Assembly (NCBI GenBank): GCA_942492865.1
Contig: OW818650.1
Span: forward strand, 1,960,564 to 2,024,563
Direction of reading: 5' to 3'
DNA from: an uncultured Bacteroidales bacterium
GTDB lineage: Bacteria > Bacteroidota > Bacteroidia > Bacteroidales > VadinHA17
DNA length: 64,000 nt
Shown here: positions 34,833 through 60,544 of the stretch, piece by piece
Layout of the letters: each line of letters opens with the position of its first letter
Numbering within the stretch: the stretch's first letter is position 1
Position numbers and translations under genes: made by a program
Notes under the pieces: model-generated
Databases searched by the model: none
What the model was told of the DNA's origin: nothing
Seen by the model: only the letters and a program-made list of their open reading frames with translations

Positions 34833-34980
34833 GGCTCAGGGCACAGAGCACAGTGCAAAAGGATTCTTCACTAACCACTCACCACTCACGTCTCACTTCT
34901 TAATTCTTCCTCCCTGCACCCTGAGCTCTGAGCTTAACTCTGAAACCCTGAACCACTGAAACCACTGAAACACTGAAACA
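34833..34980 (+). repeat. Heptamer-tract composite element upstream of wza
   Basis: ATGGCTCAGG GCACAGA GCACAGT at the left. Then CACTAAC CACTCAC CACTCAC GTCTCAC, then CCCTGAGCTCTGAGC, then CTGAAAC-type units. It ends 17 nt before the wza ATG. Confidence 0.8.
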
Positions 34981-34996
34981 TTTAAAATAGAATCCA

Positions 34997-35815
34997 ATGA
35001 AATCATATCGAATTAATATATTCCTCCTGTTAGCAATATTTCTATCGGTAAGTTCCTGCGTAAGCAAAAAAAAACTTACATATCTTCAGTATAGCCAGAT
35101 GGAAGCTCCTGATTTACCTCTGAAGGATTTAAGGATATCAATCACTCCTTCTGCATATAAGCTGATGCCTTACGATGTGCTTTTTATAAGGGTAATAACT
35201 CCCGATCCACAATGGTCAGAAATTTTTAATGTTATGGCAACCGGACAGGGAGGCGCAATGACGACTGAAAGCGCATCTTTACTGGGCTATCCAGTGAATG
35301 ATGATGGTAATATTGAAATTCCTTATGTGGGCAAGGTAGAGGTAGGTGGGAAAACGCTGGCTGAAGTGAAGGTCCATTTGGATACGATTTTTAAGGGTTA
35401 TCTTAATAATGCCTCCATTACAGTTCGTCTGGTCAATAATTACATAAGTGTTATAGGGGAAGTTACAACACCCGGGAGGTATCCCATGACAAAAGACCGC
35501 CTTAATGTGTTTGAAGCAATTTCCCTCGCGGGTGACCTTAGTTTATTCAGCAACCGGCAGAAAGTGCAGTTAATAAGACAGACTCCCTATGGACCTGTTG
35601 TGAAGCAATTCTCCCTGAGCGACAGGAGTATCCTGACATCTGAATATTACTATGTTATGCCAAATGATATTATCTATGCTGAACCTATGAGGCGAAGGTC
35701 ATTCGATATGAATTCATCTTTTACACAGATCTTACTTGGCTCCTTCACAACCATTCTTACGGCTATTACGACAATATTCGTTATATTGAATTATAATAGT
35801 GACAATGCGCAGTAG
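34997..35815 (+). CDS. wza: Polysaccharide export outer-membrane protein (Wza family)
   Basis: Lipoprotein signal (LSVSSCVS), Poly_export motif YKLMPYDVLFIRV, and SLBB-like PGRYPMTKDRLNVFEAISLAGD. Confidence 0.85.
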   Translation: MKSYRINIFLLLAIFLSVSSCVSKKKLTYLQYSQMEAPDLPLKDLRISITPSAYKLMPYDVLFIRVITPDPQWSEIFNVMATGQGGAMTTESASLLGYPVNDDGNIEIPYVGKVEVGGKTLAEVKVHLDTIFKGYLNNASITVRLVNNYISVIGEVTTPGRYPMTKDRLNVFEAISLAGDLSLFSNRQKVQLIRQTPYGPVVKQFSLSDRSILTSEYYYVMPNDIIYAEPMRRRSFDMNSSFTQILLGSFTTILTAITTIFVILNYNSDNAQ

Positions 35816-35850
35816 TTTGCTTCGAAACCCATATTCTTTTTTACAGACAA

Positions 35851-38187
35851 ATGAAAAATTCTGAAAATCAACAAAAGGAGCAACATGCAAAACAGATAGG
35901 GATAGATCCGCATGTGGTTATGTCGCTTATTCTGAAAAACTGGTATTATCTTGTTATTGGTGTTATTGTGGCTTTGCTCGGCGCCAGATTTTATATAGGT
36001 CATACGTTACCTTCCTATCTGTCAACTACAACTATCCTGATAAATGAAACGGAGGAAAGAACTCTTGCAGGAAATGAAGAACTTCTGCAGGGATTAGGCC
36101 TGCCTGGCGGGATGAGGAACATTGATAATCAGATTATGATCCTCACTTCAAGAGCATTGACGGAAAAAGCGCTGAAAGAACTACCATTCGAAATTGAGTT
36201 TTACCATAAGACGTTCCGTAATGAACTTCCTATTTACCCTGAATTACCGGTGAAGATTCTGTTTCATACTGAAAATCCGCTTCCCAGGGATGTTGAATTT
36301 TCAATCTTATATTCAGGCAATAATAAATTTATTTTACAATCTGAATCGGAATATTTTGAACTAACTAAAACTTCCTCTTTTGGGGAAACTATAGAGGCTC
36401 CTGGTGGAAGTTTTACAATAGAATGTCGCGACGAACCATGGATGAATGCCAACAGGGAGGAAAAACTTTATTTTGTTATTTACAGCCCGTCCAGATTAGC
36501 ATCTTACTATAACAGCAGGCTCAATGTGGAACATTTATCACGGACAGGTTCAATTTTGAGTGTCAGTTTGCAGGGAACGAACAGGAATAAAGATGTTGAT
36601 TTTCTCAATAAGCTTGCAGAGGTCTTTCAGGCATCATCACTTGATAAGAAAAATATAGAAGCAATCAGAAGGATCCAGTTTATTGATGAGCAGCTTATCG
36701 GGATTTCAGATTCACTCTCAATTACGGAGAGCAAGTTACAGCAGTTTCGTTCATCAAATAAGGTGATGGACCTCTCGGCACAGGGACAGGCCATTATACA
36801 ACAGGTAACCATACTTGAGAATGAAAAGGCACGATTAAGTCTTGAATCGAATTATTATGATTACCTGGCCGATTACCTCGCTAAAGATGTAACCGGGGAA
36901 CTGCCAATTATTCCGATAACCATGGGCATCACTGATCCCGGACTGACCAGGCTGGTTACAGAACTTGCTGATTTACAAAGCCAGCTCTCTGCAAGGGGAT
37001 CAATAGAGATGAATCCGGTTCAGAATCTGATTGTTCAAAAGGTGAATAGTACCAAGAGCGCTCTCCTTGAAACGCTCAATGGATTAAGAAGGGCAAACAA
37101 CCTTGCCAGGAATGAAAACCAGAATCAGATCAACAGGATAAATGCCCAGGCATCCAGACTACCTGTAACAGAAAGACAACTTTTGGGCATTGAACGGAAA
37201 TTCAGGTTAAATGATGAGATGTACACCTTTCTTCTTGAGACCAGGGCTGAACAGCAAATGCAAAAAGCATCAAATATGGCTGACTGTGAGATAATTGATC
37301 CTGCAAATATTGAGTATAGTTACATTGTCTCACCAAATCGTAACCTGGTAAATTTTGCAGCAATATTTCTTGGCTCAGGAATTCCTTTTGTAATTATCTT
37401 TCTTGCATTCGTTTTTAATAAAAAGCTTAAAAGAGACGATATCGCAAATATTACAGATACGCCTGTAATTGGAAATATTCCGCACAATGCCGGAAAAATA
37501 AATGCAGTTATCTTTGAAAACCCGGGTTCATCTATTGCTGAAGCCTACAGGTTGTTGAGGACCAGAATGCAGTTTTTTACCAAAGAGGCTGTATCCCCGG
37601 TGATTCTTGTTACCTCATCAATGCCAGGGGAAGGTAAAACATTTACTGCAATCAACCTGGCCTCTGTGTACAGCATAATGGATAAAAAGACGGTGCTTGT
37701 GGGTTTTGACCTGAGAAAACCAAAAATATTCAGGGATTTTAACCTTAATAATGATAAGGGAGTTTCGACATTCCTGATTGGTAAAGATAATCTGCAGGAT
37801 ATTATACAAAAGACTGCTTACCCGAATTTATATGTTATACCTGCGGGACCTGTTCCTCCAAACCCGTCAGAATTGACTGAGCTTGAGAAAACAGAAGAAT
37901 TGCTAAAATTGCTAAAAGAAAAATTTGATTATATTATTATTGACTCATCACCGATAGGACTGGTATCAGACCCATTCCGCATAGCAGCACTTGCTGATAC
38001 ATGCCTTATTGTGGTTAGGCCCGGATTGACACAGCGTGATATGTTCGAAAACACAATGATTGAAATAAGTAGTAACAACACCCCTGGAGTTGGTCTGATA
38101 ATTAACGATATCCAGGCAGGTGATAAGCATTACAATTACAGCGAAAAGTACGGCTACACCAGTGAAAAAAGAAAAACAGAAAAATAA
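35851..38187 (+). CDS. wzc: Polysaccharide co-polymerase / tyrosine autokinase (Wzc/GumC-type)
   Basis: Wzz-like N-terminal TM, periplasmic coiled coil and a second TM. The C-terminal P-loop kinase has SSMPGEGKTFTAINLA and IIIDSSPIG, with a Tyr-containing tail (HYNYSEKYGY). Confidence 0.9.
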   Translation: MKNSENQQKEQHAKQIGIDPHVVMSLILKNWYYLVIGVIVALLGARFYIGHTLPSYLSTTTILINETEERTLAGNEELLQGLGLPGGMRNIDNQIMILTSRALTEKALKELPFEIEFYHKTFRNELPIYPELPVKILFHTENPLPRDVEFSILYSGNNKFILQSESEYFELTKTSSFGETIEAPGGSFTIECRDEPWMNANREEKLYFVIYSPSRLASYYNSRLNVEHLSRTGSILSVSLQGTNRNKDVDFLNKLAEVFQASSLDKKNIEAIRRIQFIDEQLIGISDSLSITESKLQQFRSSNKVMDLSAQGQAIIQQVTILENEKARLSLESNYYDYLADYLAKDVTGELPIIPITMGITDPGLTRLVTELADLQSQLSARGSIEMNPVQNLIVQKVNSTKSALLETLNGLRRANNLARNENQNQINRINAQASRLPVTERQLLGIERKFRLNDEMYTFLLETRAEQQMQKASNMADCEIIDPANIEYSYIVSPNRNLVNFAAIFLGSGIPFVIIFLAFVFNKKLKRDDIANITDTPVIGNIPHNAGKINAVIFENPGSSIAEAYRLLRTRMQFFTKEAVSPVILVTSSMPGEGKTFTAINLASVYSIMDKKTVLVGFDLRKPKIFRDFNLNNDKGVSTFLIGKDNLQDIIQKTAYPNLYVIPAGPVPPNPSELTELEKTEELLKLLKEKFDYIIIDSSPIGLVSDPFRIAALADTCLIVVRPGLTQRDMFENTMIEISSNNTPGVGLIINDIQAGDKHYNYSEKYGYTSEKRKTEK

Positions 38188-38263
38188 TAGTGATTTGAAC
38201 CTATGCATATTTTCTTTCTGATTATTTAAAAATTAACTGTAATTATAATAGTCACAAAATAAA

Positions 38264-40012: not shown

Positions 40013-40015
40013 ACT

Positions 40016-40936: not shown

Positions 40937-42199
40937 ATGAAATTTGCCAATATCAGTCTGGGCAGGGATGTTGAAATAGATCCTTCCACCTCAATTAATA
41001 ATGTTGTAATAGGCGATAAGGTCAGAATTGCCAAGCGATGCAGCATATATGGCAGCCCGGAGAACCCGCTGGAGTTGGGACCCAATTCTTATGTTGGTAT
41101 GAACAGCGTGCTTAATGGTTTTTCAGCCAAACTTACCATTGGGAAGAATGTCAGTATATCCCAGTTTGTCAATATAATGGTCGATTCGGGTCCAAATGCC
41201 TCTCCCGGTATGATGAGAATTTTTCCGATAGTCAAAGGGCCGGTAACGATCGGAAATGACAGCTGGATAGGATCCGGTGCAACGATAATGCCGAACGTGA
41301 CTTTAGGTGAGTACTGCGTAGTTGCGGCACACAGCTACGTAAATAAAAGTTTTCCTGCATTTTCGGTTATTGGAGGTTGCCCGGCAAAACTGATCAGGAC
41401 ATTCACAGATGAGGAGAAGGCCACAATGCTTGATGTTGAAAATAAAAGTCTCCCATGTAATTCCAGCAGTTATGAAGACAATTATCTTGATCTGCCATTT
41501 GAAGACGCACTCCGGAAATTCCGTTTCAGAAATCTTTTGACCAAGCTCAGGGAATACCCCCATAAACGAATTATTGAAATAGGCCCCGGGTCCAATCCGC
41601 TGTTCAGTTATTTCAGCGGATTCGAAAGAATGACAATAATTGAGCCTGGTAAAAATTTTGCAAAAATTGTGCGTACACAGATTGGTACAAGATCTGATAT
41701 AACGCTTATCAATGATACAATTGAAAACATATCAGGACAACTCGGGAATGACTCTTATGATTTGGTAATAATCGGAGGTTTTCTGCACGAAATAGACAAT
41801 CCGGATGCAGTCTTAAGTGCAGTGCGGGTTCTCTGTTCTGACGATACAGTTGTTTACACTTATGTGCCTAACGCTCAATCATTCCACCGGATACTTGCTT
41901 TCAAAATGGGACTGATAGAAAATGTTTTTCAGAAATCGGGGCACGATGAGTTATTTAAAAGGCAGAGTGTTTTTGATATTGAGTCTTTCAAAGCATTAAT
42001 GAGAAATCAGGGCTTTAAAGTAATTGATTCCGGGTCATATTTTATTAAACCATTCACCCATGACCAGATGAAAGCAATTATTGATAACCACATTATTGAT
42101 AATTCCTGTCTCGAAGGTCTGGATAAAATGGTTGAGTATCTGCCAGGTATGGGTTCAGAATTATGGTTTAGCTGTAAAAAAGATGATAAAATTTCTTGA
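40937..42199 (+). CDS. Fusion: left-handed beta-helix (hexapeptide) acyltransferase + class I SAM-dependent methyltransferase
   Basis: Residues 1-160 are hexapeptide repeats (IGDKVRIAKRCSIYG.., IGNDSWIGSGATIMPNVTLGEYCVVAAHSYV). Residues 200-420 carry the SAM motif IIEIGPGSNP and the acidic motif LVIIGGFLHEI. Confidence 0.75.
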   Translation: MKFANISLGRDVEIDPSTSINNVVIGDKVRIAKRCSIYGSPENPLELGPNSYVGMNSVLNGFSAKLTIGKNVSISQFVNIMVDSGPNASPGMMRIFPIVKGPVTIGNDSWIGSGATIMPNVTLGEYCVVAAHSYVNKSFPAFSVIGGCPAKLIRTFTDEEKATMLDVENKSLPCNSSSYEDNYLDLPFEDALRKFRFRNLLTKLREYPHKRIIEIGPGSNPLFSYFSGFERMTIIEPGKNFAKIVRTQIGTRSDITLINDTIENISGQLGNDSYDLVIIGGFLHEIDNPDAVLSAVRVLCSDDTVVYTYVPNAQSFHRILAFKMGLIENVFQKSGHDELFKRQSVFDIESFKALMRNQGFKVIDSGSYFIKPFTHDQMKAIIDNHIIDNSCLEGLDKMVEYLPGMGSELWFSCKKDDKIS

Positions 42200-43406
42200 T
42201 CTCAAAGCTGTTAATGATTCTTTCGGAGATGAGCTTTCGGAAGCAGTTAACCGTGTCCTTAAGTCAGGATGGTATCTGCTTGGAAATGAAGTAGGCGATT
42301 TCGAAAAAAGCTATGGGTCTTATATAGGATCAAAGCATTGCATTGGTGTGGCAAATGGTCTGGATGCACTCAGGCTCATTTTCAGAGCCTATATGGAATT
42401 GGAAATGATGAAGGAAGGAGATGAAATCATTGTTCCGGCGAATACTTATATAGCATCCATTCTTGCAATAACTGAAAACCGGTTAAAACCCGTCCTGGTT
42501 GAGCCGCAAATAAATAACTATAATATAGACGTTTCATTAATTGAAAAGAGCATTACTGCCCGCACACGTGCAATTATGGTCGTTCATCTTTACGGCAGGA
42601 CCTGCTGGTCTGAAAACCTGGAGGATATTGCTGCCAGATACAATCTGAAGATAATAGAGGATAATGCACAAGCGGCAGGAGCGATGACGATGGCTCAGAG
42701 CTCAGAGCGCAGAGCGCAGGAGAAGAAGGCACAGGGCACAGGGCACAGAGCTCAGGAGGAAATGGCTCAGAGCTCAGAGCTCAGGGCTCAGGGCAAGAAA
42801 GAGATGACCCTGAAACGAACTGGTTCATTGGGAGATGCAGCCGGTCACAGTTTTTATCCGGGGAAAAATTTAGGTGCCATAGGAGATGGAGGCGGAGTCA
42901 CTACTGATGATGATGAACTTGCTGCGGTTGTAAGATCGCTGGCGAACTATGGTTCTTCAAAGAAGTATGTATTCGAATATCAGGGATTGAATTCAAGGCT
43001 TGACGAGATACAGGCAGCAGCATTAAATGTAAAGTTGCGCAGGCTTGACCATGATAACCAGCGCCGCCGTGAAATCGCTAAATGTTATATTGAAAATATA
43101 AGGAATCAGGGAATAATTTTACCTGAAAATCCAACCTTTGACCTTTCTCATGTATGGCATCTTTTTGTTGTCCGCTCACTGTTCAGAGAACGTTTGCAGA
43201 ATTATCTTATTGAGAACGGGATACAAACGCTGATCCACTACCCTGTACCGCCTCATCAACAACAGGCATATAAGGAGTGGAATGATTTAATATTCCCATT
43301 AACTGAAAAAATTCACCGGGAAGTATTGAGTATGCCGATAAGCCAGGTAATGAATGATAATGAAATGGAGCAGGTTATTAATATTATCAATAAATTCTCC
43401 GTTTAG
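42183..43406 (+). CDS. DegT/DnrJ/EryC1/StrS aminotransferase (FdtB/QdtB-like) carrying a ~39-codon repeat-derived insertion
   Basis: MIKFLDLKAVNDSF.., IIEDNAQAAGA, GSLGDAAGHSFYPGKNLGAIGDGG and ANYGSSKKY..GLNSRLDEIQAA. The listed start 42081 lies inside the previous gene, so ATG 42183 is used. Confidence 0.85.
   Translation: MIKFLDLKAVNDSFGDELSEAVNRVLKSGWYLLGNEVGDFEKSYGSYIGSKHCIGVANGLDALRLIFRAYMELEMMKEGDEIIVPANTYIASILAITENRLKPVLVEPQINNYNIDVSLIEKSITARTRAIMVVHLYGRTCWSENLEDIAARYNLKIIEDNAQAAGAMTMAQSSERRAQEKKAQGTGHRAQEEMAQSSELRAQGKKEMTLKRTGSLGDAAGHSFYPGKNLGAIGDGGGVTTDDDELAAVVRSLANYGSSKKYVFEYQGLNSRLDEIQAAALNVKLRRLDHDNQRRREIAKCYIENIRNQGIILPENPTFDLSHVWHLFVVRSLFRERLQNYLIENGIQTLIHYPVPPHQQQAYKEWNDLIFPLTEKIHREVLSMPISQVMNDNEMEQVINIINKFSV
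42690..42806 (+). repeat. Heptamer-tract element embedded in-frame in the aminotransferase CDS
   Basis: ATGGCTCAGA GCTCAGA GCGCAGA GCGCAGG ... GGCACAG GGCACAG GGCACAG AGCTCAG ... ATGGCTCAGA GCTCAGA GCTCAGG GCTCAGG. It translates as MAQSSERRAQEKKAQGTGHRAQEEMAQSSELRAQGKKE. Confidence 0.85.
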
Positions 43407-48700: not shown

Positions 48701-49963
48701 ATGAATAACACTCCGGCATATTTACTACCTGTCCCAAAGCTGAATAGCGGGAACTATCTTATTTTATTCATTTTATGGCCATTTCTGAGTTTCATGCTGG
48801 CAGTTATCAATTTCAGCCAGAAAGAAGCAAGAAAGGTAATCTATATATTTTTCATTTATTATGGACTTACATTTGTAATAAGTGAACTGGGAGGATATGG
48901 ACCTGATGCCGAACGTCAGGCTTTACGGCTTATTACTGCTGCCAGGCAGCCATTTTCAGAATTTTTTAAAATAGTCGGTGACCTTTATGTAGCCGAAGAT
49001 TCGGTTGACCTCATACAGCCACTCTTGATTTTCTTTGTATCACGGTTTACTAATGATTACGGTTTTCTGTTTGCTATTTATGCAGCTTTCTTCGGATTCT
49101 TCTACCTTAAAAGCATTAAGCTGGTCTACAGGCACTTTTATGAAAATCCGGGGTATAACTCACTTATTCATTTGATCTTCTTTGTGCTGATTATTCCAAT
49201 TACATTCATTAATGGTTTCAGGATGTGGACAGCAGCATGGATTTTCTTCTTTGGGGCATATAATGTTGTATTAAATCGTGATCCGCGGTATCTCCTTATT
49301 GCTTTATGTTCTTCATTTGTTCATTTTAGTTTTTTTAGTGCCAGTGCAGTGCTCGCTATCTATTACTTTGCCGGTAACCGGAACATAATTTATTTCCCGC
49401 TGGCGGCAGTCTCCTTTGTCCTTCCGCAATTGCTGGCTCCATTATTTCAATCTCTGTCACTCAGATTGGGCGGAGGAATTCAAAACAGGTATGAAGGATA
49501 TGCCGGCGAGAATTATATTTTGCACAGGCAGGATGAACTGGCTCAGGGTGCCTGGTTCCTCAGGATGAGCAATGATCTTGTCTTGTATTACCTGCTCTTT
49601 GCAATTTTTATAATCCAGCTTAATTCAAAAACCCGCGAAAAAACCCAGGAAGAAAAAAATCTGTACAGCTTTACCCTTCTTTTTCTTTCATTTGTGAATT
49701 TTGGTTCAATAATCCCATCCTTCGGAGGAAGGTTTATGCTGGTGTTCTTTTTGTTTGCCACATTGTATATTATTTACTATTTCATGAAAATTTCCGGAAC
49801 CCGGATTAACTGGCTAACAATTATTGGATTATTCCCTATGCTTCTTTACATTATTGTAAATTTAAGGATAGGATTTCCATCTGTTAATGCCTGGATCTTT
49901 GTTCCCGGATTGGGATTGCCATTATTTATGCCCGACCTCTCCTTATTTGAAGTTTTATTTTGA
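48701..49963 (+). CDS. EpsG/Wzy-like polysaccharide polymerase membrane protein
   Basis: About 11 TM helices, aromatic-rich with no soluble domains, in the expected polymerase position beside the GTs. ATG 48701 is preferred to TTG 48668. Confidence 0.55.
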   Translation: MNNTPAYLLPVPKLNSGNYLILFILWPFLSFMLAVINFSQKEARKVIYIFFIYYGLTFVISELGGYGPDAERQALRLITAARQPFSEFFKIVGDLYVAEDSVDLIQPLLIFFVSRFTNDYGFLFAIYAAFFGFFYLKSIKLVYRHFYENPGYNSLIHLIFFVLIIPITFINGFRMWTAAWIFFFGAYNVVLNRDPRYLLIALCSSFVHFSFFSASAVLAIYYFAGNRNIIYFPLAAVSFVLPQLLAPLFQSLSLRLGGGIQNRYEGYAGENYILHRQDELAQGAWFLRMSNDLVLYYLLFAIFIIQLNSKTREKTQEEKNLYSFTLLFLSFVNFGSIIPSFGGRFMLVFFLFATLYIIYYFMKISGTRINWLTIIGLFPMLLYIIVNLRIGFPSVNAWIFVPGLGLPLFMPDLSLFEVLF

Positions 49964-51099
49964 TGAAGAACAAACCAGGTTATGCTCATCTGCGGGCACT
50001 TGTCTCACAGAATCTGATTAATATTAGAGGATGGAGAACTCCTGACAAGTTCATTGTTATCGAAAGTGACGACTGGGGAAGTATCAGGATGCCATCAAAT
50101 GAGGTTTATTCAAAATTCCTGAAAAAAGGACTGGAACTTACAGGAAGCGACTATAACAGACTTGATTCCCTCGAAAGCAATGATGATCTGATAAACCTGT
50201 ATGAAGTCCTTCACTCGTTCAGGGATTCGCACGGCAATCCCCCTGTGGTTACCGCAAATATGGTTGTAGGTAATCCTGATTTTAAAAAGATAAGGGAGTC
50301 AGATTTCAATGACTATTATTATGAACCGGTTACAGAAACGCTCAGAAGATATGATGGCCGTGAAAAGGTTGAATCTCTCTGGTTGCAGGGAAAGACTGAA
50401 AAGGTCTTCCATCCACAATTTCATGGCCGTGAACACGTCAATGTTGTCAGGTGGATGAGTGCTCTCAGGAAGAAAACACCGGGGATAATGTTCGCATTTG
50501 AAAATGAGACAACATTCTCGGGTGAGGGGGATTATAATTTCATGGAGGTTCTTGATTATAATAGCAGGGCTGACCTTGTAAAAATGAAGGAAAGTCTTGT
50601 TGAAGGACTGAACAATTTTGAAAAAATATTTGGTTTCAGGTCGCAGTCATTCATTCCGCCATGCTATACCTGGGATAGCAATATTGAGGAAACACTTTAT
50701 ATAAACGGGGTAAATTATATCCAGGGACTGGTAATTCAATCAGTACCCACCGGTTCATTCGGGAAGTACACAAAGAAAATTCATTATATGGGAAAGCGGA
50801 ACTCCTGCGGACAGTATTATCTCATCAGGAACTGCTTTTTCGAACCCTCTCTTTCCAAAAAAACTGATCCGGTTGGAGACTGCCTTAACCGTATAAATGT
50901 CGCTTTCAGATGGCATAAACCGGCAATAATTGGCAGTCATCGTATAAACTTTATAGGATCACTAGATGAAAGTAACAGGGATAACAATTTAAGATTACTG
51001 AAAGAGCTTCTTTCCCGGATATTGAAAGAATGGCCCGAAGTCATCTTCATTACTTCAGATCAGCTTGGTGAAATGATGGCGGGGGAGCGGAGAGCGTAA
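49963..51099 (+). CDS. Uncharacterised protein, paralogue of 62693..63802 (possible divergent NodB-like deacetylase)
   Basis: Shares IESDDWGSIRMPS, NPDFKKIR, FHGREH, RNCFFEP and AFRWHKPAIIGSHRINF with the second copy. The stop codon TAA (51097-51099) lies inside the first GCGTAAA heptamer of the downstream element. Confidence 0.6.
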   Translation: MKNKPGYAHLRALVSQNLINIRGWRTPDKFIVIESDDWGSIRMPSNEVYSKFLKKGLELTGSDYNRLDSLESNDDLINLYEVLHSFRDSHGNPPVVTANMVVGNPDFKKIRESDFNDYYYEPVTETLRRYDGREKVESLWLQGKTEKVFHPQFHGREHVNVVRWMSALRKKTPGIMFAFENETTFSGEGDYNFMEVLDYNSRADLVKMKESLVEGLNNFEKIFGFRSQSFIPPCYTWDSNIEETLYINGVNYIQGLVIQSVPTGSFGKYTKKIHYMGKRNSCGQYYLIRNCFFEPSLSKKTDPVGDCLNRINVAFRWHKPAIIGSHRINFIGSLDESNRDNNLRLLKELLSRILKEWPEVIFITSDQLGEMMAGERRA

Positions 51100-51628
51100 A
51101 GCGGAGAGCGTAAAGCGTAAAGCGTAAAGCGTAAAGAGGAAAGAGGAAAGAGAGTACCCATTATTATAAAGGACAGTGAGTAAGATTGAGAGTCATAAAG
51201 ATTTAATTGTTTATCAAAAGGCGTACAAGCTGGCAATGGAGATTTTTGAAATATCCAAAAGTTTTCCGAAAGAGGAAAAATATTCACTGACAGACCAAAT
51301 TAGAAGATCATCGAGATCTGTGACTTCATGCCTGGCTGAATCATGGGCAAAGAGAAGGTATGAAAAAGCATTTGCTAACAAACTTACAGACTCACTGGGT
51401 GAAGAAAATGAAACAGAAGTCTGGCTTGATTATTCAAAAGACTGCAAATATATTACTGATGCGGAACATGTCAACTTTATGAATGAATATTTAGAGGTCC
51501 GTAAAATACTTATATCTATGATCAATAACCTGGATAAGTGGTGCAATAATTAATTTCTCCATTCTCTCCTCTTTTTTCTTTCTTTACGCTATACGCTAAA
51601 CGCTCTACGCTCACCTCTCATCGCTTCA
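51087..51628 (+). mobile_element. IVS-like cassette: four-helix-bundle gene bracketed by heptamer-built imperfect inverted repeats
   Basis: Left arm 51087-51154: GCGGAGA GCGTAAA GCGGAGA (GCGTAAA)x4 (GAGGAAA)x2 GAGAG. Right arm 51556-51628: CTCTCCTCTTTTTTCTTTCTTTACGCTATACGCTAAACGCTCTACGCTC followed by ACCTCTCATCGCT. The arms are about 75-80 percent reverse-complementary over ~45 nt. Confidence 0.4.
51176..51553 (+). CDS. Four-helix-bundle protein (23S rRNA intervening-sequence protein family, PF05635-like)
   Basis: HKDLIVYQKAYKLAMEIFEISKSFPKEEKYSLTDQIRRSSRSVTSCLAESWAKRRY...EVWLDYSKDCKYI is the family hallmark. GTG start as listed. Confidence 0.85.
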   Translation: MSKIESHKDLIVYQKAYKLAMEIFEISKSFPKEEKYSLTDQIRRSSRSVTSCLAESWAKRRYEKAFANKLTDSLGEENETEVWLDYSKDCKYITDAEHVNFMNEYLEVRKILISMINNLDKWCNN

Positions 51629-51631
51629 TAA

Positions 51632-52783
51632 ATGCAATCTGAAAAAATAAACACAGATCCCATAAAGATCCTCCTAACCGGAGACTTCTGTCCCCACAAC
51701 CGGATTGAGAAACTGGCTCTTAAAGAAGACTTCGGAGCAATCTTCAATGATTTCATTGATGTGTTTCAGGGGAATGATCTGAATATTACTGACCTGGAGT
51801 GCCCTTTGACAACATCGGAAACAGCAAGACCAAAAACGGGTCCCCATCAGAAGGCTCATCCCGATTGTATTAATATCCTGAAATATGCAGGGATTAACCT
51901 TGCTGCGATGGCAAATAATCATATCATGGATTATGATAACAATGGTATTCAGGATACAATTGATCTTTGCAAAAGAGCAGAAATTAATACGGTTGGTGTG
52001 GGGCAATCTCTGGAAGCTGCTTCAAAACCTTTTTCAGCAAATATAAAGGGGAAAAGATTTGCAATACTGAATTATGCTGATAACGAGTTCCTGTCAACTC
52101 CGGACGGATCATTTACATGTAATCCATTGGATCAGGTCCGCTTGTTTTATGATATCAAAAATGCCAGGCAAACCAATGATTTTCTGATAATAATCGTTCA
52201 TGCCGGGAATGAGTTTTTTGAATTGCCATCACCCCGGACAAAGAGGTTATACAGGTATATTGCTGATCTCGGTGCTGATGTGGTAATTGCCCATCACACA
52301 CATGCCTGGTCGGGATATGAAATATATGATTCAAAACCAATCTTCTACGGATTGGGAAACTTTATCTATGACTGGCCCGGAAAATTGAATTCAAGGTGGA
52401 ACCAGGGTTATGTTGTGAGGCTTAAAGTATCTGATAGAACTGACTTCGAAATTATCCCAATTAAACAATGCAATGAGATTCCGGGAGTTTTTCATCTCAA
52501 TTCAGAGGAGATTGGGGGCTTTTTAAATGAGATGGATCGTCTCAATAAAATAATTGCCGATGACGATCATCTGGAAACTGAATTTCAGAAATACTGTAAG
52601 TCAGTCCAGCCAATGTATGAAGCATTCATTGAACCAAATTTTGGCAAAAAAATTGCATCACTAAGAAAAAGAGGATTATTTCCTAAACTAATGTCCAAAA
52701 GAAAACGCCTTCTTCTGTTAAATATCACACGCTGTGAATCTCATCGTGATGTTCTTCAAAGAATGCTTAAACAATATGAATAA
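51632..52783 (+). CDS. CapA-family (PGA_cap) metallophosphatase-fold protein
   Basis: ILLTGDFCP...ECPLT...NLAAMANNHIMDYDNNGIQDTIDLC...GVG and VHAGNEF...VIAHHTHAWSGYE match the CapA/PGA_cap pattern. Confidence 0.75.
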   Translation: MQSEKINTDPIKILLTGDFCPHNRIEKLALKEDFGAIFNDFIDVFQGNDLNITDLECPLTTSETARPKTGPHQKAHPDCINILKYAGINLAAMANNHIMDYDNNGIQDTIDLCKRAEINTVGVGQSLEAASKPFSANIKGKRFAILNYADNEFLSTPDGSFTCNPLDQVRLFYDIKNARQTNDFLIIIVHAGNEFFELPSPRTKRLYRYIADLGADVVIAHHTHAWSGYEIYDSKPIFYGLGNFIYDWPGKLNSRWNQGYVVRLKVSDRTDFEIIPIKQCNEIPGVFHLNSEEIGGFLNEMDRLNKIIADDDHLETEFQKYCKSVQPMYEAFIEPNFGKKIASLRKRGLFPKLMSKRKRLLLLNITRCESHRDVLQRMLKQYE

Positions 52784-52784
52784 A

Positions 52785-52927
52785 GCGTAGAGCGTAAAGC
52801 GTAAAGCGTAAAGCGTAAAACGTAAAGCGTAAAGCGTAATGGAAAGAGAATAGAGAAGGTGTATTTGTCTCTACGCTCTACGCTCTACGCTCATCACTCA
52901 CCTCTCATCACTCATCGCTACCCTCTC
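52785..52927 (+). repeat. Cargo-less heptamer hairpin element between capA-like and asnB
   Basis: The left arm runs in strict register from 52785: GCGTAGA (GCGTAAA)x4 ACGTAAA GCGTAAA GCGTAAT GGAAAGA GAATAGA. After a spacer come (CTCTACG)x3 (52869-52889), then TCATCAC TCACCTC TCATCAC TCATCGC up to the asnB ATG. Confidence 0.9.
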
Positions 52928-52929
52928 AT

Positions 52930-54864
52930 ATGTGTGGAATAACCGGATATCTTAATTTAAATCAGCAACCTGTTGATAATTCAGGGCCCATCCTGAAGAT
53001 GCTGAATGTTCAGAAGCACCGGGGACCGGATGATTCAGGGATCAGGGCTTTTAGTCTTACTAAAGGTCAGTCAATTGAAGTTGAGACAGGCGGTCTCCGG
53101 AAAATAGATGGATATTTTGAAGGTATTCTGGGTTTTAACAGGCTCAGCATACTGGACCTCTCGGCTAACGGGCACCAGCCTATGGAGAGTCCCGATAAAA
53201 GAGTACTACTGGTCCTGAATGGTGAAATATACAATGCATTCGATTTTAAAAATGAGCTTAAAGAATGGGGATATTCCTTTAAAAGCACTTCCGATACGGA
53301 GATCGTACTTGCACTTTATCTCAGATATGGGTTTGACGGATTGCTTGAGCGTCTTAACGGAATGTTTGCAATTGTAATAGCAGATCTCGGCCGGAATGAG
53401 CTCTTTATTACGCGCGACAGATTTGGCATTAAACCCATGTACTATATCTCAACAGGGACAAGGCTGGCATTCTCCTCTGAAATTAAAAGCTTTAAGTATC
53501 TTGAAAATTTTACTTTCCGTCTCGATGAAGACCAGCTCGATGAATTTCTTCTCTTCCGGAATAACCTTTCAGATACATTGTACCGCGATGTTCTCTCTCT
53601 TACCCCCGGGTATTATTTAAATTACAGTCCTAAGAACGGCCTGTTGAAGAAAAGGTACTTTAATATTAACGATTACATGCGGTCAGGTGAAGCCACAGGC
53701 GACATTGAATCCTTCACGGTCACGCTTGAAAAAACGCTGGCTCAAAGTGTTAAAAGTCAGCTAATGAGCGATGTAAAGCTGGGATGCCAGCTTTCAGGTG
53801 GAATAGACTCGTCTTTGGTTACATGGCTCGCTAACCGTAATAATGGTGGAAATAACTTTGAGGCCGTTTCTATAATTTTCAATGATAAACGATTCAGTGA
53901 AGAGAGATATATCGATATTGTTACTGACAAACTTGAAATTCCTTCACATAAGTTTCTGCTGGATCCGGGTTATTATTTTGAAAATTTTGAACGTGCTACC
54001 TGGCATTTTGAGGCGCCTCTTAATCATCCTAATACAATTGCCATATATAAATTGTCGCAGCGGGCAAAGGAATATGTGACTGTACTTCTGAGCGGGGAAG
54101 GCGCTGATGAGGTATTTGGTGGCTATGAAAGATTTTATCAGTTAGCCTATCCATTCAGGATGAGGAAGTTGCTCAGTGTAGTCAAAAAATATGCCATACA
54201 CCCTGATGGATTTACTGATTACTTTGACCAGACTTCAAGGGCAATAATGGCCACATCGTTCATGATCCCTTCCCTGGCAGCGAAGCTTAGGGATGGATTC
54301 AGCAAAGAAAGAGCGACATCAGGCCGCAGAACTTTGTACATGTCACTGAGTGGTTCCCTTTTTGATAAGCAGGTAAAATATGAGATAAACTCCTATCTGC
54401 CCGACCTGCTTCTCAGACAGGATAAGATGTCGATGGCACATTCAATAGAGAACCGTGTTCCTTTTCTTGATAATACAGTCGTTGAAACTGCATTCACCAT
54501 TCCTGAAAACCTTCTGCTTCTCAGAAAAAGCGCCGAGGGGTCCAATACAGAAAAGTATCTTCTTAAGAAAATGACTTCAAAGATCTTTGGAAATGACTTC
54601 GCTTTCAGAAATAAAATGGGGTTCGGAATTCCGGTTCGTGAGTTCCTTATGGATAGAAGATTTTCGGTATTTCTTAATGATAAAGTGATCCCTGGGATAA
54701 AAAGACGAGGGATATTTAATTACAAACTGGCCTCGGAATGGTTCTCAAAAATAGGAACCCTGAAGTATTTCGAACTAGATGCATTATGGGTGATGGTTTC
54801 ATTTGAAGTATGGGCTTCATTATACCTTGACAATAATTATGAAAATAGCAATTCACAATACTAA
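52930..54864 (+). CDS. asnB: Asparagine synthase (glutamine-hydrolysing) family amidotransferase
   Basis: N-terminal MCGITGY (Ntn Cys2) and the synthetase-domain PP-loop LSGGIDSS. 644 aa. Confidence 0.9.
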   Translation: MCGITGYLNLNQQPVDNSGPILKMLNVQKHRGPDDSGIRAFSLTKGQSIEVETGGLRKIDGYFEGILGFNRLSILDLSANGHQPMESPDKRVLLVLNGEIYNAFDFKNELKEWGYSFKSTSDTEIVLALYLRYGFDGLLERLNGMFAIVIADLGRNELFITRDRFGIKPMYYISTGTRLAFSSEIKSFKYLENFTFRLDEDQLDEFLLFRNNLSDTLYRDVLSLTPGYYLNYSPKNGLLKKRYFNINDYMRSGEATGDIESFTVTLEKTLAQSVKSQLMSDVKLGCQLSGGIDSSLVTWLANRNNGGNNFEAVSIIFNDKRFSEERYIDIVTDKLEIPSHKFLLDPGYYFENFERATWHFEAPLNHPNTIAIYKLSQRAKEYVTVLLSGEGADEVFGGYERFYQLAYPFRMRKLLSVVKKYAIHPDGFTDYFDQTSRAIMATSFMIPSLAAKLRDGFSKERATSGRRTLYMSLSGSLFDKQVKYEINSYLPDLLLRQDKMSMAHSIENRVPFLDNTVVETAFTIPENLLLLRKSAEGSNTEKYLLKKMTSKIFGNDFAFRNKMGFGIPVREFLMDRRFSVFLNDKVIPGIKRRGIFNYKLASEWFSKIGTLKYFELDALWVMVSFEVWASLYLDNNYENSNSQY

Positions 54865-55861
54865 GGGTTTCTTCTGCGATCGCTGGATCCCATATTGTCA
54901 GGAAAATAATGTTGATTACAGAATTGTGGATTGCTACAGTTCGGATATAATGCAGCAAATATCTGACTGTGATATTCTTATGTGGCATTTCAACCATAAA
55001 AGCCCAAAGGCAAGCAAGTTTGCCAAACAGCTGCTTTACTCAGTAGAAGCTTGCGGTAAAAAGGTATTTCCTGATTTTAATACTGTCTGGCATTTTGATG
55101 ATAAAGTGGGACAAAAGTATCTGCTCGAATCGTTAGGAGCCCCGCTGGCACCTTCTTATGTATTCTACGACAAAAAGGAAGCACTTGAATGGGCTGGAAA
55201 TACATCCTTCCCAAAAGTTTTCAAGTTACGCAATGGGGCCGGGTCTGATAATGTGAAACTGGTCAGATCAAAAAAAGAAACAGTAAGGATTATCAATAAG
55301 GCCTTCGGACGAGGATTCAGACAATATGAGGGATGGATTAATCTGAAGGAGAGATACAGGAAGTACAGGCTTGGAAAAACCACCTCATGGAATGTGATGA
55401 AGGGAGTTTTGAGGCTTTTCCATAAAACAGAATATGCAAGGGTTACAGGCAAAGAAATCGGATATGCCTATTTTCAGGACTTTATTCCGGACAACGATCA
55501 TGATATCCGGGTTATAGTAATCGGCAACAAGGCATTTGCAATAAAAAGAATGGTACGTGATAATGATTTCAGGGCTTCAGGAAGCGGAATGATACTTTAC
55601 GATAAGGAGCTTTTTGATGACGATACTATCCGTTTATCATTTGAGATCTCTGAAAAGCTTGGATCTCAGAGCATGGCGTATGATTTTGTTTTTCTGAACG
55701 GCAAACCCCTGATCGTTGAGATAAGCTATGGATTTGCAATGCATGGTTATGATCCATGCCCCGGTTACTGGGACCGTAATCTGGTGTGGCATGCCGGTAA
55801 ATTCAATCCTTATGGATGGATGGTTGAGGACATTTTAAGAAGCGTTGAGAAGAAAGCGTAA
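54839..55861 (+). CDS. ATP-grasp domain protein
   Basis: FPKVFKLRNGAGSDNVKLVRSKKE and YFQDFIPDNDHDIRVIVIGNKAFAIKRMVRDNDFRASGSG fit an ATP-grasp fold. ATG 54839 (MKIAIHN) is preferred to 54803. The stop TAA (55859-55861) lies inside the first GCGTAAA heptamer. Confidence 0.6.
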   Translation: MKIAIHNTKGFFCDRWIPYCQENNVDYRIVDCYSSDIMQQISDCDILMWHFNHKSPKASKFAKQLLYSVEACGKKVFPDFNTVWHFDDKVGQKYLLESLGAPLAPSYVFYDKKEALEWAGNTSFPKVFKLRNGAGSDNVKLVRSKKETVRIINKAFGRGFRQYEGWINLKERYRKYRLGKTTSWNVMKGVLRLFHKTEYARVTGKEIGYAYFQDFIPDNDHDIRVIVIGNKAFAIKRMVRDNDFRASGSGMILYDKELFDDDTIRLSFEISEKLGSQSMAYDFVFLNGKPLIVEISYGFAMHGYDPCPGYWDRNLVWHAGKFNPYGWMVEDILRSVEKKA

Positions 55862-55977
55862 AGCGTAGAGCGTAGAGCGGAAAGAATAAGCGTAGAGCGT
55901 AGAGCGTAAAGCGTAGAGAGTAGAGAGTAATTTTTCTGAGCCCTGAGCTCTGAGCCCTGAGCCCTGAGCCCTGAGCC
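55856..55977 (+). repeat. Heptamer-tract composite element (GCGTARA tract followed by CTGAGCY tract)
   Basis: GCGTAAA GCGTAGA GCGTAGA GCGGAAA GAATAA GCGTAGA GCGTAGA GCGTAAA GCGTAGA GAGTAGA GAGTAAT, a TTTT spacer, then CTGAGCC CTGAGCT (CTGAGCC)x4. Confidence 0.9.
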
Positions 55978-55997
55978 AAAGTGAATATATAAACAAG

Positions 55998-57083: not shown

Positions 57084-57112
57084 GATTAAAAATTTTACTA
57101 AAAAAAAGTTAT

Positions 57113-58033: not shown

Positions 58034-58040
58034 ACGACCA

Positions 58041-59186
58041 ATGTACATGACTAAGAAAAGGTTAAAACTTGGAATGATATTTAATTTCAATCCAACCTGG
58101 ATGGGAGGAATTATTTATCTTATTAATCTGGTAAAAACACTCAACCGACTGGATGACAATGACAAACCTGAAATATTTCTTTTTTACAATCCTTCACTCG
58201 AAAAATTTCTGGAAGAGTTCAAATATCCTTACCTGCATGCAATTGAATGGATATCGCCTTCAATTATCAGCGGACATCTGAAATCATGGCTGAAAGGGAA
58301 AAATGTGTTTTATGATGATCTTATAAAAAAATATGAGATTGATACAATTTACCCGGTCAATAAATTCCCTGTAAAGAATAAGACCGGAGCCAAATTTATT
58401 GCATGGTTCGCTGATCTCCAGCATAAGCATTATCCTGAGTTTTTCAGCAGATCGAGACTGATACACAGGGCTATAAGATTACAGCTCATGCTAAGGAATG
58501 CCAGCGATATAATTGTGTCGAGCAACTCTGTAAAGAATGATTTTTCCAGGTTCTTTAAGCTACGGGATGATCTGAGATTTCATATTTATCATTTTACCTC
58601 TGTAAATGATGATTACCCTGACATAAACATTGAGGTACTCAGGAAAAAATATAATTTACCTGTGGACTATTACATGGTATCCAATCAATTTCATAAGCAT
58701 AAGAATCACAGAGTGTTGCTTCAGGCCCTTGCAATTATGAAGAAGAAAGGAATAATAAAGTATATGGCAATGACCGGTAAGCTTCCTTCAGCCGAAAATT
58801 CTCCGTATATGAATGAAATCCACCAGATCATCAATGAAAACAACATGAAGGACCAGATCTGTATGCTGGGGGTAATACCAAGAGGTGATCAGCTTAAAAT
58901 TATGTCGCACTCACAGGCTGTACTTCAGCCCAGTTTGTTCGAAGGATGGAGCACCGTCATCGAAGACGCAATTTCGCTCCAGGTCCCGGTAATAGCATCT
59001 AATCTGGATGTCAATATTGAGCAGCTCGGAGATAAAGGAACATATTTTCATCCTGACAATCCGGAAGAACTTGCTTCAATTCTTTCAGATCTCCCTGAAA
59101 GGAACATGGATGCTGTTATATATGGTGATTATTCGTTAAGAATAAGGGAAGCTGCTGAATCTATTATGAAGGTCTTAGGTAAATAA
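58041..59186 (+). CDS. Family 4-like glycosyltransferase
   Basis: C-terminal LQPSLFEGWSTVIEDAISLQVPVIASN (EX7E). ATG 58041 is preferred to TTG 58014. Confidence 0.7.
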   Translation: MYMTKKRLKLGMIFNFNPTWMGGIIYLINLVKTLNRLDDNDKPEIFLFYNPSLEKFLEEFKYPYLHAIEWISPSIISGHLKSWLKGKNVFYDDLIKKYEIDTIYPVNKFPVKNKTGAKFIAWFADLQHKHYPEFFSRSRLIHRAIRLQLMLRNASDIIVSSNSVKNDFSRFFKLRDDLRFHIYHFTSVNDDYPDINIEVLRKKYNLPVDYYMVSNQFHKHKNHRVLLQALAIMKKKGIIKYMAMTGKLPSAENSPYMNEIHQIINENNMKDQICMLGVIPRGDQLKIMSHSQAVLQPSLFEGWSTVIEDAISLQVPVIASNLDVNIEQLGDKGTYFHPDNPEELASILSDLPERNMDAVIYGDYSLRIREAAESIMKVLGK

Positions 59187-59227
59187 TTTGGCACCTTAAT
59201 TGAAAAACATCCCTTACTTACTCCCGG

Positions 59228-60430
59228 TTGAAAATACTCTTCGCAACAATTGCCTGGCCTGCCAAAGGTGAAAGGAACCTTTACTCGGACCTGATGGATG
59301 AATTTGTCAGGGATGGCCACATTGTATATGTATTGTGCGCGGATGAAAAAATTCAGGTCACAACTTCCGGAATAGAAAATGGAATAAACATCCTCAGAGT
59401 AAATACAACCAGGATCCGCAAAACAGGTAAACTGAAAAAAGCCCTCGCTTTTTTCAACCTTGGATCAAGATTGAAAAAAGAGGTTCGCAGGTCATGGCCG
59501 GATCTGGAAATTGACTTGATAATTAGTAATTCGCCCCCGGTTATCCTGTCGGGTTTGATGAGATTTCTCAAGAGAATGTATAATGCACCACTGTATTATA
59601 TGCTCAAGGACATTTGGCCCGACGGACCGGCAGATCTTAAAATTATAAGGAAGTACGGACTTGTTTATTACTATTTCAGGATCCATGAAATCAGAATGTA
59701 TAAAGCTGCTGATTATATTGGTTGCATGTCACAATATAATGTTAGTTATTTACTTAAACACAATAATTTTTTGTCTGAAAGCAAAGTTGAGATATGTCCC
59801 AATACAATCACTCCCCGTACAATAACATTAAGAAATTCAAGGGATCTTATAAGAAAAAAATTTAATATCCCGGAACAGGCTGTGGTGTTCATTTTCAGCG
59901 GAAATATCGGACGTGCGCATGGATTGGATTTTTATCTTGATGCAATAGAAATGCTCAGAGATTTTGATAAAGCATATTTTTTAATTGGTGGTAACGGTAT
60001 GCAATTCAATAGAGTTACCCGGGAAATTAAAAGGAGGAATTTAAAAAATACAGGCACCTACAGCAGACTTCCGGCAGATGATTTTGATGAGTTGCTATTG
60101 TCGAGCGATGTCGGAGTAATACTCCTTGATTCAAAATATAATGTCCCGCAGTTCCCATCACGTCTCCTTTCTTATCTTGAAGCAGGAAAGCCGGTTTTGT
60201 GCTCAGTGAACAATGCGACCGATATTGGAAAAACAATTGTTGATGCCGGATGCGGAGTCTCAACACTGCATGGAGATTTTGAGGAATTTAAATCAGCGGT
60301 GAAGTTTTTCTGTGACCCTGGTAATTCAGAAACAGTTGAGAAAATGCAATCAGATTCCCTTAAATTGCTAAATCAGAATTTTACATCATCAGTCTCTTAC
60401 AATACTATCATAAGGCATTTTGTTGGATGA
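59228..60430 (+). CDS. Family 4 glycosyltransferase (WbuB-like)
   Basis: KILFATIAWPAKGERNLYSDLMDEFVRDGHIVYVL, a GT-B C-domain and PSRLLSYLEAGKPVL. TTG start as listed. Confidence 0.65.
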   Translation: MKILFATIAWPAKGERNLYSDLMDEFVRDGHIVYVLCADEKIQVTTSGIENGINILRVNTTRIRKTGKLKKALAFFNLGSRLKKEVRRSWPDLEIDLIISNSPPVILSGLMRFLKRMYNAPLYYMLKDIWPDGPADLKIIRKYGLVYYYFRIHEIRMYKAADYIGCMSQYNVSYLLKHNNFLSESKVEICPNTITPRTITLRNSRDLIRKKFNIPEQAVVFIFSGNIGRAHGLDFYLDAIEMLRDFDKAYFLIGGNGMQFNRVTREIKRRNLKNTGTYSRLPADDFDELLLSSDVGVILLDSKYNVPQFPSRLLSYLEAGKPVLCSVNNATDIGKTIVDAGCGVSTLHGDFEEFKSAVKFFCDPGNSETVEKMQSDSLKLLNQNFTSSVSYNTIIRHFVG

Positions 60431-60450
60431 AACTGATCTTAGTAAGGCAC

Positions 60451-60544
60451 GATTTCGGATTTCGGATTTCGGATTGATTCACCATTAGCATTCCAATCCG
60501 CAATCCACCTTCCGCAATCCGCAATTACAGGATTTCGGATTTTT
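60451..60544 (+). repeat. Heptamer hairpin element (GATTTCG / CAATCCG tracts)
   Basis: (GATTTCG)x3 GATTGAT at 60451-60478. CAATCCG CAATCCA CCTTCCG CAATCCG CAATTAC at 60494-60528. GATTTCG GATTTTT at 60531-60544. The tracts are near-complementary with one mismatch per heptad. Confidence 0.9.

Follow-up and report, generated by a model that had tools for sequence, protein, structure and literature searches.

Heptad-repeat blocks in a Bacteroidales polysaccharide locus as putative stem-loop cassettes with a four-helix-bundle cargo gene

Heptad blocks of the polysaccharide locus

The 64,000-nucleotide stretch of an uncultured Bacteroidales genome analyzed here (contig OW818650.1 of assembly GCA_942492865.1, forward strand; hereafter the window) includes a polysaccharide locus with six short blocks of tandem 7-nt units, numbered 1 to 6 from left to right, one of which encloses a gene for a four-helix-bundle (4HB) protein of the S23p family. 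Scanning the window for segments with at least 17 of 21 bases identical at a given lag revealed 10 segments of period 7, all within positions 34868-60479, versus a mean of 0.02 expected from first-order Markov shuffles; among the other periods from 4 to 12 a single segment was found, of period 6, and the left 34 kb of the window held no period-7 segment. Tandem Repeats Finder reported period-7 arrays of 3-14 copies at all six positions. A first-pass annotation of the same DNA had described the six blocks, listed their unit families, noted no such blocks in the left 34 kb and proposed a period-7 scan; both searches and a print-out of the heptads bear it out on these points. At least four unit families occur in this one locus, with blocks 1, 2 and 6 using units other than those of the remaining blocks, and five of the six blocks lie in spacers.

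The same annotation had five blocks filling the gap between a stop codon and the next start codon, a picture that holds only in part. Block 4 does fill its whole gap, but block 1 spans 148 nt of a 391-nt gap, and block 2 is not intercistronic, lying inside the gene for a DegT-family aminotransferase. In three cases the tract starts no later than the stop codon of the gene upstream of it (stops at 51099, 52783 and 55861). The intergenic purine-rich arms contain one to four stop codons in each of the three frames, the tracts are nearly devoid of ATG, GTG and TTG, and purine-rich tracts supply the stop codons of upstream genes.

The roughly 400 nt between the arms of block 3 (51154 to 51556), overlooked in the first pass, are taken up by the 4HB gene, whose product matches PF05635 (E 4e-32, 111 bits against a cut-off of 33.8) and TIGR02436, the four helix bundle protein family (E 2.4e-29, 101.7 bits against a cut-off of 24). 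Among solved structures, 2RLD (E 9e-12) and 2GSC come nearest, with five chains per entry each. The S23p family is very large, with 9,521 clusters at 50% identity matching the cargo sequence. The gene begins with GTG at 51176, and homologues begin with ATG; the public annotation (P0012) gives a 105-aa product from an internal ATG, which is probably too short. The 5' arm provides the TAA stop of the gene at 49960-51099, and an inverted repeat pairs 51093-51154 with 51564-51625 (62 nt, 73% complementary); the minimum-energy and centroid folds both predict a stem of about 65 bp (z -5.8). A PF05635/TIGR02436 gene inside complementary termini that form an enclosing stem is the arrangement of S23p-type intervening sequences, although those are inserted in helix 25 or 45 of 23S rRNA and block 3 lies between two protein-coding genes. 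Judged by its sequence, 51084-51628 is a complete cassette copy whose anatomy matches that of S23p-bearing 23S rRNA intervening sequences.

Block 4 consists of a (GCGTAAA)8 5' arm (52781-52839), a 29-nt spacer and a 3' arm of (CTCTACG)3 followed by CTCAYCA units (52869-52929), with an inverted repeat between 52784-52813 and 52869-52892 (23-24 nt, 88-91% complementary). Once the gene and inner loop of block 3 are removed, the two blocks align arm by arm, and the alignment extends to the inner AAAGAG segment and to the order in which (YTACGCT)n is followed by CACCTCTCATC; at the level of sequence, block 4 is a block 3-type cassette lacking the gene. Block 5 has a 5' arm of GCGTAGA/GCGTAAA heptads (55853-55930) that is the same as in blocks 3 and 4 by arm alignment and supplies the stop of the gene at 54803-55861, followed by a 3' tract, (CTGAGCC)6 at 55936-55980, that is unrelated to this arm and is not its complement. 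In block 6, 60451-60476 pairs with 60494-60519 (26 nt, 77% complementary), so that the right tract is the near reverse complement of the left in blocks 3, 4 and 6, as the first-pass annotation had claimed for three blocks. The CTCACYA unit family of the C-rich tract of block 1 is also that of the 3' arms of many metagenomic 4HB cassettes, and its CTGAAACC units recur in metagenomic locus L142 and in the DegT-loop inserts of homologues. Blocks 1, 5 and 6 are best explained as related, partly mosaic copies of the cassette.

Block 2 differs in lying within a protein, one identical to the NCBI-called 407-aa P0121. Its 117 nt correspond to 39 codons and are free of stops in all three frames. The insert is skipped by the family models, which match the protein to its left and right, the NCBIfam matches being split at residues 202/245 of the long open reading frame (ORF), and the AlphaFold predicted local distance difference test score is 52-61 in the insert versus about 90 on both sides, which fits a tolerated surface appendage. 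The loop is hypervariable, with about 8-70 extra residues among the 120 closest homologues (59-71% identity), which are conserved around the insertion site (IEDNAQAAGA ... RTGSLGDAAGHSF); the reading frame is kept in 120 of 120, though databases favour intact genes, and the longest perfect heptad run in the tract is three units. The loop peptides of these proteins read like translations of stop-free heptads: AQSSELRAQ from GCTCAGA, PEPCALSPEP from CCTGAGC, ERRAESGERKA from GCGGAGA/GCGAAAA and TLKPWNSETLK from CTGAAACC. Heptad-coded loops were confirmed at the DNA level in three homologues, of which L214 has an in-frame purine-rich arm together with a complementary arm, L215 a second unit family and L216 a decayed tract. 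The L214 gene also contains a second in-frame composite of 165 nt (1001-1165) built of GCTCAGA, CTCTACG, CTCACCG and CCCTGCG heptad families, which indicates that DegT tolerates inserts at more than one place. Taken together, these data fit a stop-free version of the cassette that is tolerated in frame in a DegT surface loop.

A search of the 30-64 kb part of the window against Rfam, with E up to 1, gave no match, and scans for sigma-70 promoters and intrinsic terminators, which do not cover Bacteroidota promoters, found nothing above shuffle expectation at the blocks.

Table 1. Positions and composition of the heptad blocks and of the genes that enclose or are enclosed by them
Feature	Position	Strand	Description
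Block 1 purine-rich tract	34833..34856	+	GGCTCAG GGCACAG AGCACAG; pairs with 34915-34934 in the predicted fold, z -1.8
Block 1 C-rich, G-poor tract	34866..34900	+	CACTCAC / CACCACT units
Block 1 right tract	34915..34980	+	CTGAGCT heptads, then 8-9-nt CTGAAACC-type units; Tandem Repeats Finder period 8/17
DegT/DnrJ/EryC1-family aminotransferase gene, host of block 2	42183..43406	+	PF01041, E 2.7e-94
Block 2, in-frame heptad insert in DegT loop	42690..42806	+	GCTCAGA/GCGCAGA/GGCACAG units
Block 3 5' purine-rich arm	51084..51154	+	GCGGAGA/GCGTAAA heptads, then AAAGAGG units
Cargo gene, 125-aa 4HB protein (23S rRNA intervening-sequence protein/S23p family)	51176..51553	+	PF05635, TIGR02436
Block 3 3' pyrimidine-rich arm	51556..51628	+	Complementary to 51084-51154
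Block 4, cassette without gene	52781..52929	+	Fold z -2.7
Block 5, mosaic	55853..55980	+	No inverted repeat
Block 6	60451..60544	+	(GATTTCG)3.6 arm, 17-nt spacer, (CAATCCG)-type arm, GGATTTCGGATTTTTT tail; fold z -2.6

The 4HB gene and its arms in other genomes

Eighty metagenomic loci were selected by the 4HB protein alone (69-87% identity; query of four close sequences) and their 120-nt flanks were analyzed. This revealed period-7 tracts upstream in 68% and downstream in 64%, versus 5.5% of control windows from the same loci, and with a relaxed cut-off in 88% on either side versus 6.6% of controls; no other period from 3 to 12 was enriched. Upstream arms were 65% A+G with 10% C, and downstream arms 60% C+T with 13% G. 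When the upstream arm was scored against the reverse complement of its own downstream arm the median was 37, compared with 24 for the arm of another locus and 14-15 for controls. The unit family, GCGTARA-type or GTGAG/ATGAG-type, was concordant between the arms in 55 loci (26 + 29) and discordant in three (Fisher 3e-13), although the compared loci are phylogenetically related, so that this and the other statistics overstate independence.

Of the gaps adjoining the 4HB gene 71% contained a period-7 tract, compared with 29% of the gaps of at least 40 nt elsewhere on the same contigs. Heptad tracts are common throughout the host organisms, and the preference of the 4HB gene for them is not an exclusive one. 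In 74 of the 80 loci the 4HB copy is intact, and its ratio of nonsynonymous to synonymous substitution rates (dN/dS) is about 0.07, which together indicate that the protein is functional. The genes flanking the cassettes are mostly co-directional with them (52/57 upstream, 46/57 downstream) and fall into 91 Pfam families, in which glycan genes are over-represented and many other kinds are present. In one of the metagenomic loci (L191, at about 800-925) the 4HB gene is broken by a small insertion bounded by an inverted repeat, CCCTGTGAAATA ... TATTTCACAGGG, that resembles a miniature inverted-repeat transposable element (MITE) nested in the cassette.

A translated search of plasmids for homologues of the cargo gene returned 41 records, nearly all from Nostocales and other cyanobacteria. 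In 12 of 14 plasmid copies the gene follows a purine-rich arm and precedes the pyrimidine-rich complement of that arm, the units being mostly 7 nt long (GGGAGCA, GGGTGTA, GGTGACA, GGGAAAA, GGCAGAA); of the remaining two copies, one is flanked on either side by direct heptad arrays and the other lacks arms. In four cyanobacterial plasmid loci (L208, L209, L211 and L213) heptad-armed 4HB genes lie co-directionally inside CRISPR-cas operons, in the orders cas6-4HB-cas4 and cas10-4HB-cmr3 or after cas2. On an Azospirillum lipoferum plasmid, the 4HB gene interrupts a 23S rRNA gene (Rfam RF02541, 2540 bits), and the CAGAGGA/CGGATGA heptads on one side of it are matched by their complement on the other (z -8.2). 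Homologues of the Azospirillum protein led to five more Rfam-confirmed rRNA loci with four further distinct intervening sequences, which brings the 23S rRNA intervening sequences with a 4HB gene between CAGARGN-type heptad arms to six, five of them distinct, at two 23S positions. In Coxiella burnetii, the intervening sequence has two to three tandem GACAGAT heptads upstream of the S23p gene, their number varying among strains, and RNase III, which cuts the RNA stems of S23p-type intervening sequences, cleaves the stem at the first GACAGAT repeat; the gene itself is reported as decaying and unexpressed (PMC4990558).

A second set of loci was selected by the repeat, through a genome scan for the exact 24-mer (GCGTAAA)3GCG, which occurs in at least 119 places. 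The taxa include Bacteroidota, Chloroflexota, Patescibacteria, Gammaproteobacteria, Paenibacillus, Nitrospirota, Elusimicrobiota and others, a spread that may not be special to this unit. Wherever one of the repeat-selected loci contains a 4HB gene (six cases, including a Geobacter, a Chryseosolibacter and three metagenome-assembled Bacteroidales genomes), a GCGTAAA-like tract directly adjoins the gene on one side and the complement of that tract on the other. Gene-less tract pairs run from purine to pyrimidine in 28 cases and in the reverse order in nine. A purine-to-pyrimidine order reads the same on either strand, so it belongs to the element itself and does not reflect orientation. About 73% of the tracts in the fetched loci are intergenic, though ORFs cover 83% of the sequence.

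According to the first-pass annotation the tracts organise the glycan locus, a claim that does not survive comparison with relatives. Three loci (L216-L218) show synteny with the window (wza, wzc, fdtA, fdtA, ..., DegT, flippase, GT2), yet their spacers are ordinary AT-rich DNA without heptads, and the 43 Bacteroidota repeat-selected loci have neighbours from 127 Pfam families, methionyl-tRNA synthetase, transketolase and LpxB among them, with the 4HB gene as the sole recurrent neighbour; in the window itself, one block is intragenic. The wza-wzc junction is empty in the window, where the genes are 35 nt apart, and cassette-occupied in L008, L138 and L191. In L008, a Bacteroidales metagenome-assembled genome, the wza and wzc homologues are separated by about 3.3 kb (1300-4630) in which heptad arrays of six or more unit types follow one another, with one intact and one truncated 4HB gene. 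The junction upstream of the homologue of the window gene at 31511-32443 is likewise occupied in L182 and empty in the window. No target-site duplication was seen when the three occupied wza-wzc junctions were compared with the empty one of the window, a comparison in which homologues of about 50% identity blur the boundaries. The empty and occupied junctions, the heptad-free syntenic loci and the varied neighbours together suggest that the tracts are lineage-specific additions. Specificity for glycan loci is ruled out by the syntenic L216 and by the housekeeping neighbours of repeat-selected loci: the tracts are enriched at gene junctions and the 4HB-bearing subfamily is biased to glycan operons, but they are not part of the design of the locus.

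Probable selfish cassettes and competing explanations

The elements follow a common plan in which a loop separates a purine-rich 5' arm from a 3' arm that is pyrimidine-rich and largely complementary to it. The comparisons show cassette, arm type and cargo gene to be inherited together, with the cassette placed in many different operons. We consider it probable, with moderate confidence, that the blocks are selfish or near-neutral heptad-armed stem-loop cassettes and not organisers of the polysaccharide locus, and that they are RNase III substrates. The cassettes would be co-transcribed with the operon as passengers, and their paired arms would form long double-stranded RNA in the operon transcript. 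As in rRNA intervening sequences, RNase III could cut the arm duplex, which would separate the upstream and downstream messages and release the 4HB message. Replication slippage would change the number of units in a tract, and the cassettes would spread by recombination or horizontal transfer. The first-pass idea of structured inter-cistronic modules thus stands insofar as these are structured elements in transcribed spacers of co-directional genes, and falls short in that one block is intragenic; its suggestion of a role in RNA processing was a reasonable guess, the closest relatives being S23p intervening sequences cut by RNase III (PMC4990558). More tentatively, a single cross-phylum selfish class may underlie heptamers of the cyanobacterial STRR (short tandemly repeated repetitive) type, S23p intervening sequences and in-frame enzyme-loop inserts, hitherto regarded as three separate phenomena. 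The 4HB protein would then bind, protect or propagate the heptad arms of its own cassette, and the gene-less tracts would be its non-autonomous relics.

Several observations weigh against the selfish-cassette interpretation. An inverted-repeat search found no arm complementarity in blocks 2 and 5, and the short hairpins of the gene-less blocks are weak (23-26 bp with mismatches, z -1.8 to -2.7). In addition to the relatedness of the compared loci mentioned above, the 29% of other intergenic gaps with heptad tracts dilutes the link to the 4HB gene, as does the presence of that gene in just six of the 119 repeat-selected loci among the matches listed, which means that most tracts exist without it; such gene-less tracts may be either deletion derivatives or landing pads. 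No target-site duplication, transposase or reverse transcriptase was found, so the mobility of the cassettes is suggested by varied contexts only, and the case for RNase III cleavage here is made solely by analogy. Efficient cleavage of the full hairpin in the L214 DegT coding sequence would, moreover, destroy the mRNA.

If the tracts were plain slippage-generated simple-sequence repeats, with heptamers as the unit that polymerase slippage favours, they would be neutral in unconstrained spacers and have no structural role, and the 4HB gene would merely occur in the same spacers. Slippage draws on the account of Mrazek 2007 given in PMC4679880, according to which heptamers outnumber every other class of long simple-sequence repeat in many bacteria, on the tracts in 29% of other gaps on the same contigs and beside genes of any kind, on the non-complementary blocks 2 and 5 and on the unit number that differs among Coxiella strains (PMC4990558). 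It does not by itself predict the fixed purine-to-pyrimidine polarity, however, and it sits poorly with arm complementarity far over controls, the co-variation of unit type between arms and the 71-88% occupancy of 4HB flanks. The same layout is found inside 23S rRNA, where the DNA is not an unconstrained spacer, and block 4 resembles block 3 arm by arm, including the order of non-repeat segments; on this evidence we find slippage alone unlikely. Still less likely, in our judgement, are recombination joints, the second idea of the first-pass annotation, in which shared heptad arrays would provide microhomology for exchanging gene cassettes in a hypervariable polysaccharide locus. Such joints would account for tracts exactly at gene boundaries, for a unit vocabulary common to relatives, for block 5, which joins the arm of one family (A) to that of another (B), for the wza-wzc junction, filled in L008, L138 and L191 but not in the window, and for the enrichment of glycan genes beside 4HB cassettes, and a role in gene rearrangement has been suggested (MacGregor 2015, PMC4679880). 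Yet no gene cassette with matching tracts at its ends was found whose presence differs between relatives, only the 4HB cassette itself varying; repeat-selected loci adjoin housekeeping genes, the layout also occurs in rRNA and cas operons, and L216 keeps the same gene order without tracts.

Tracts that end within a few bases of start codons are also what arrays bound by an RNA- or DNA-binding regulator would look like, and a translational role has been proposed for TAACTGA arrays (PMC4679880); alternatively, 7-nt slippage could switch genes on and off, notably DegT. A surface-glycan gene containing a repeat unit whose length is not divisible by three is the classic layout for phase variation, and the length of the DegT loop is highly variable. 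At least four unrelated unit families in one locus would, however, require several regulators, and a longest perfect run of three units in DegT is short for a contingency tract. All 120 DegT homologues are in frame, although databases favour intact genes, and both versions leave the complementary arms and the cargo gene unexplained, for which reasons a regulatory or contingency function seems to us a poor prospect. The chance that the tracts are assembly or sequencing artefacts is negligible: repeats can mis-assemble, and contigs ending in such regions have been noted (MacGregor 2015, PMC4679880), but hundreds of independent assemblies show the same layout, among them isolate genomes, complete plasmids and metagenome-assembled genomes from long reads. 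Reading frames are also intact across the tracts.

Three further identities were considered and ruled out. Integron attC sites have core sites whose structure differs from tandem heptads, whereas the arms here are tandem heptads, and no integrase is present; CRISPR arrays are excluded by 7-nt head-to-tail units without spacers. G-quadruplex repeats, as proposed for Xanthomonas and Nostoc (PMC4692102), are excluded by window units that lack G runs.

The window contains other repeats outside the blocks. Eleven copies of a 234-nt tandem repeat (26148-28716, 91% matches) lie inside a 1900-aa ORF (25812-31514) that resembles a type IX secretion cargo built of repeated domains, and downstream of it are a gene that is PorP/SprF-like by eye only (31511-32443) and a PorE/OmpA-like gene (32461-34605). 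Between a gene ending at 20363 and one starting at 22146, a 1.8-kb stretch without a long ORF contains two arrays of a 61-nt unit with a 184-nt super-period (20712-21077 and 21250-21612, 72-91% matches); these are not CRISPR-like, as whole units are similar. A 33/66-nt tandem repeat at 5072-5222, inside the ORF at 4843-5334, encodes a repeated peptide.

Comparison with known systems

Rickettsia palindromic elements, Correia/NEMIS, ERIC and REP/BIME sequences are small hairpin repeats that are co-transcribed with their neighbours. Some Correia elements are cut by RNase III, and Rickettsia palindromic elements insert in frame into protein genes and are tolerated in surface loops, as block 2 and the DegT inserts appear to be. 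Those families have a conserved unique consensus, and MITEs also have target-site duplications. In the window, by contrast, copies have a unit vocabulary and an arm order in common, but their arms are tandem heptad arrays that vary in the type and number of units, duplications were not observed, and the full-length form carries a 4HB gene, not a transposase. The Avd protein of diversity-generating retroelements is a distant homologue of the cargo protein (PF22296, E 2.4e-07; NF033474, E 2.8e-06), far below the family cut-offs (27.6 bits versus 80 for NF033474). With this sub-threshold score and no reverse transcriptase among the Pfam-scanned neighbours, which are glycan-synthesis enzymes, a diversity-generating retroelement is ruled out; a template/variable repeat pair was not searched for.

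The tracts are not STRR sequences in the strict sense, a term for repeats of heterocystous cyanobacteria, as the best homologues of the window genes are from named Bacteroidales, type IX secretion genes are present, and the units differ from those of STRR1-3 (CCCCAGT, TTGGTCA and CAACAGT). The analogy drawn in the first-pass annotation was nonetheless apt, since the nearest plasmid homologues of the cargo gene are almost all from Nostocales, which with other cyanobacteria are the classic hosts of STRR sequences, and are flanked by STRR-type heptads. STRR sequences and the heptamers of Xanthomonas, Geobacter and Beggiatoaceae resemble the window tracts in consisting of tandem 7-nt units, with several families per genome, mostly intergenic. 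Heptamer arrays are also reported in Anabaena, and those of Xanthomonas form convergent pairs, 70-75 in number (PMC4692102); Geobacter has both intergenic and intragenic families (PMC2700814), and heptamer repeats are present or absent between close relatives (PMC4679880). The window differs in taxon, Bacteroidales, and in unit sequences, although the earlier statement that no Bacteroidota equivalent had been described is contradicted by the intergenic heptamer arrays reported in five Bacteroidetes (MacGregor 2015, PMC4679880). The link to a cargo gene is not made in the STRR and heptamer papers, whereas the cyanobacterial 4HB genes analyzed here are bracketed by STRR-type arms.

Heptad repeats and S23p intervening sequences are therefore both already known, and a general link between them was not found described in the literature searched, where a 4HB gene between heptad arms appears in the single-species Coxiella note only, with no cross-phylum statement that it is a habitual cargo; in-frame heptad colonisation of a DegT loop was likewise not found described. 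For decades heptamer repeats have been recorded in cyanobacteria, Xanthomonas, Geobacter, Beggiatoaceae and some Bacteroidetes, with neither an origin nor a function assigned to them. The association of the 4HB gene with heptad arms makes two old puzzles testable, these repeats and the function of S23p outside diversity-generating retroelements, on the strength of the habitual complementary arms around the gene, the same layout in rRNA, cas and glycan operons and the in-frame colonisation of an enzyme loop. For annotation, the consequence is that tracts supply stop codons, lengthen proteins and inflate the apparent loop diversity of glycan enzymes.

The closest known counterparts of the window cassettes are the S23p intervening sequences of Leptospira, Coxiella burnetii and Alphaproteobacteria, which likewise have a PF05635 gene in the loop of a long stem with complementary termini and heptads directly upstream of the gene (GACAGAT in Coxiella, PMC4990558; CAGARGN-type in the six examined here). 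They are regarded as selfish, which is the reading we propose for the window cassettes. In contrast to them, the window cassettes have as their host transcript a protein-coding operon and not helix 25 or 45 of 23S rRNA, their arms are longer (about 70 nt) and made of other units (GCGTAAA), and gene-less and in-frame intragenic copies accompany the complete one. The window-type 4HB gene is also under strong purifying selection (dN/dS about 0.07), unlike the decaying Coxiella gene.

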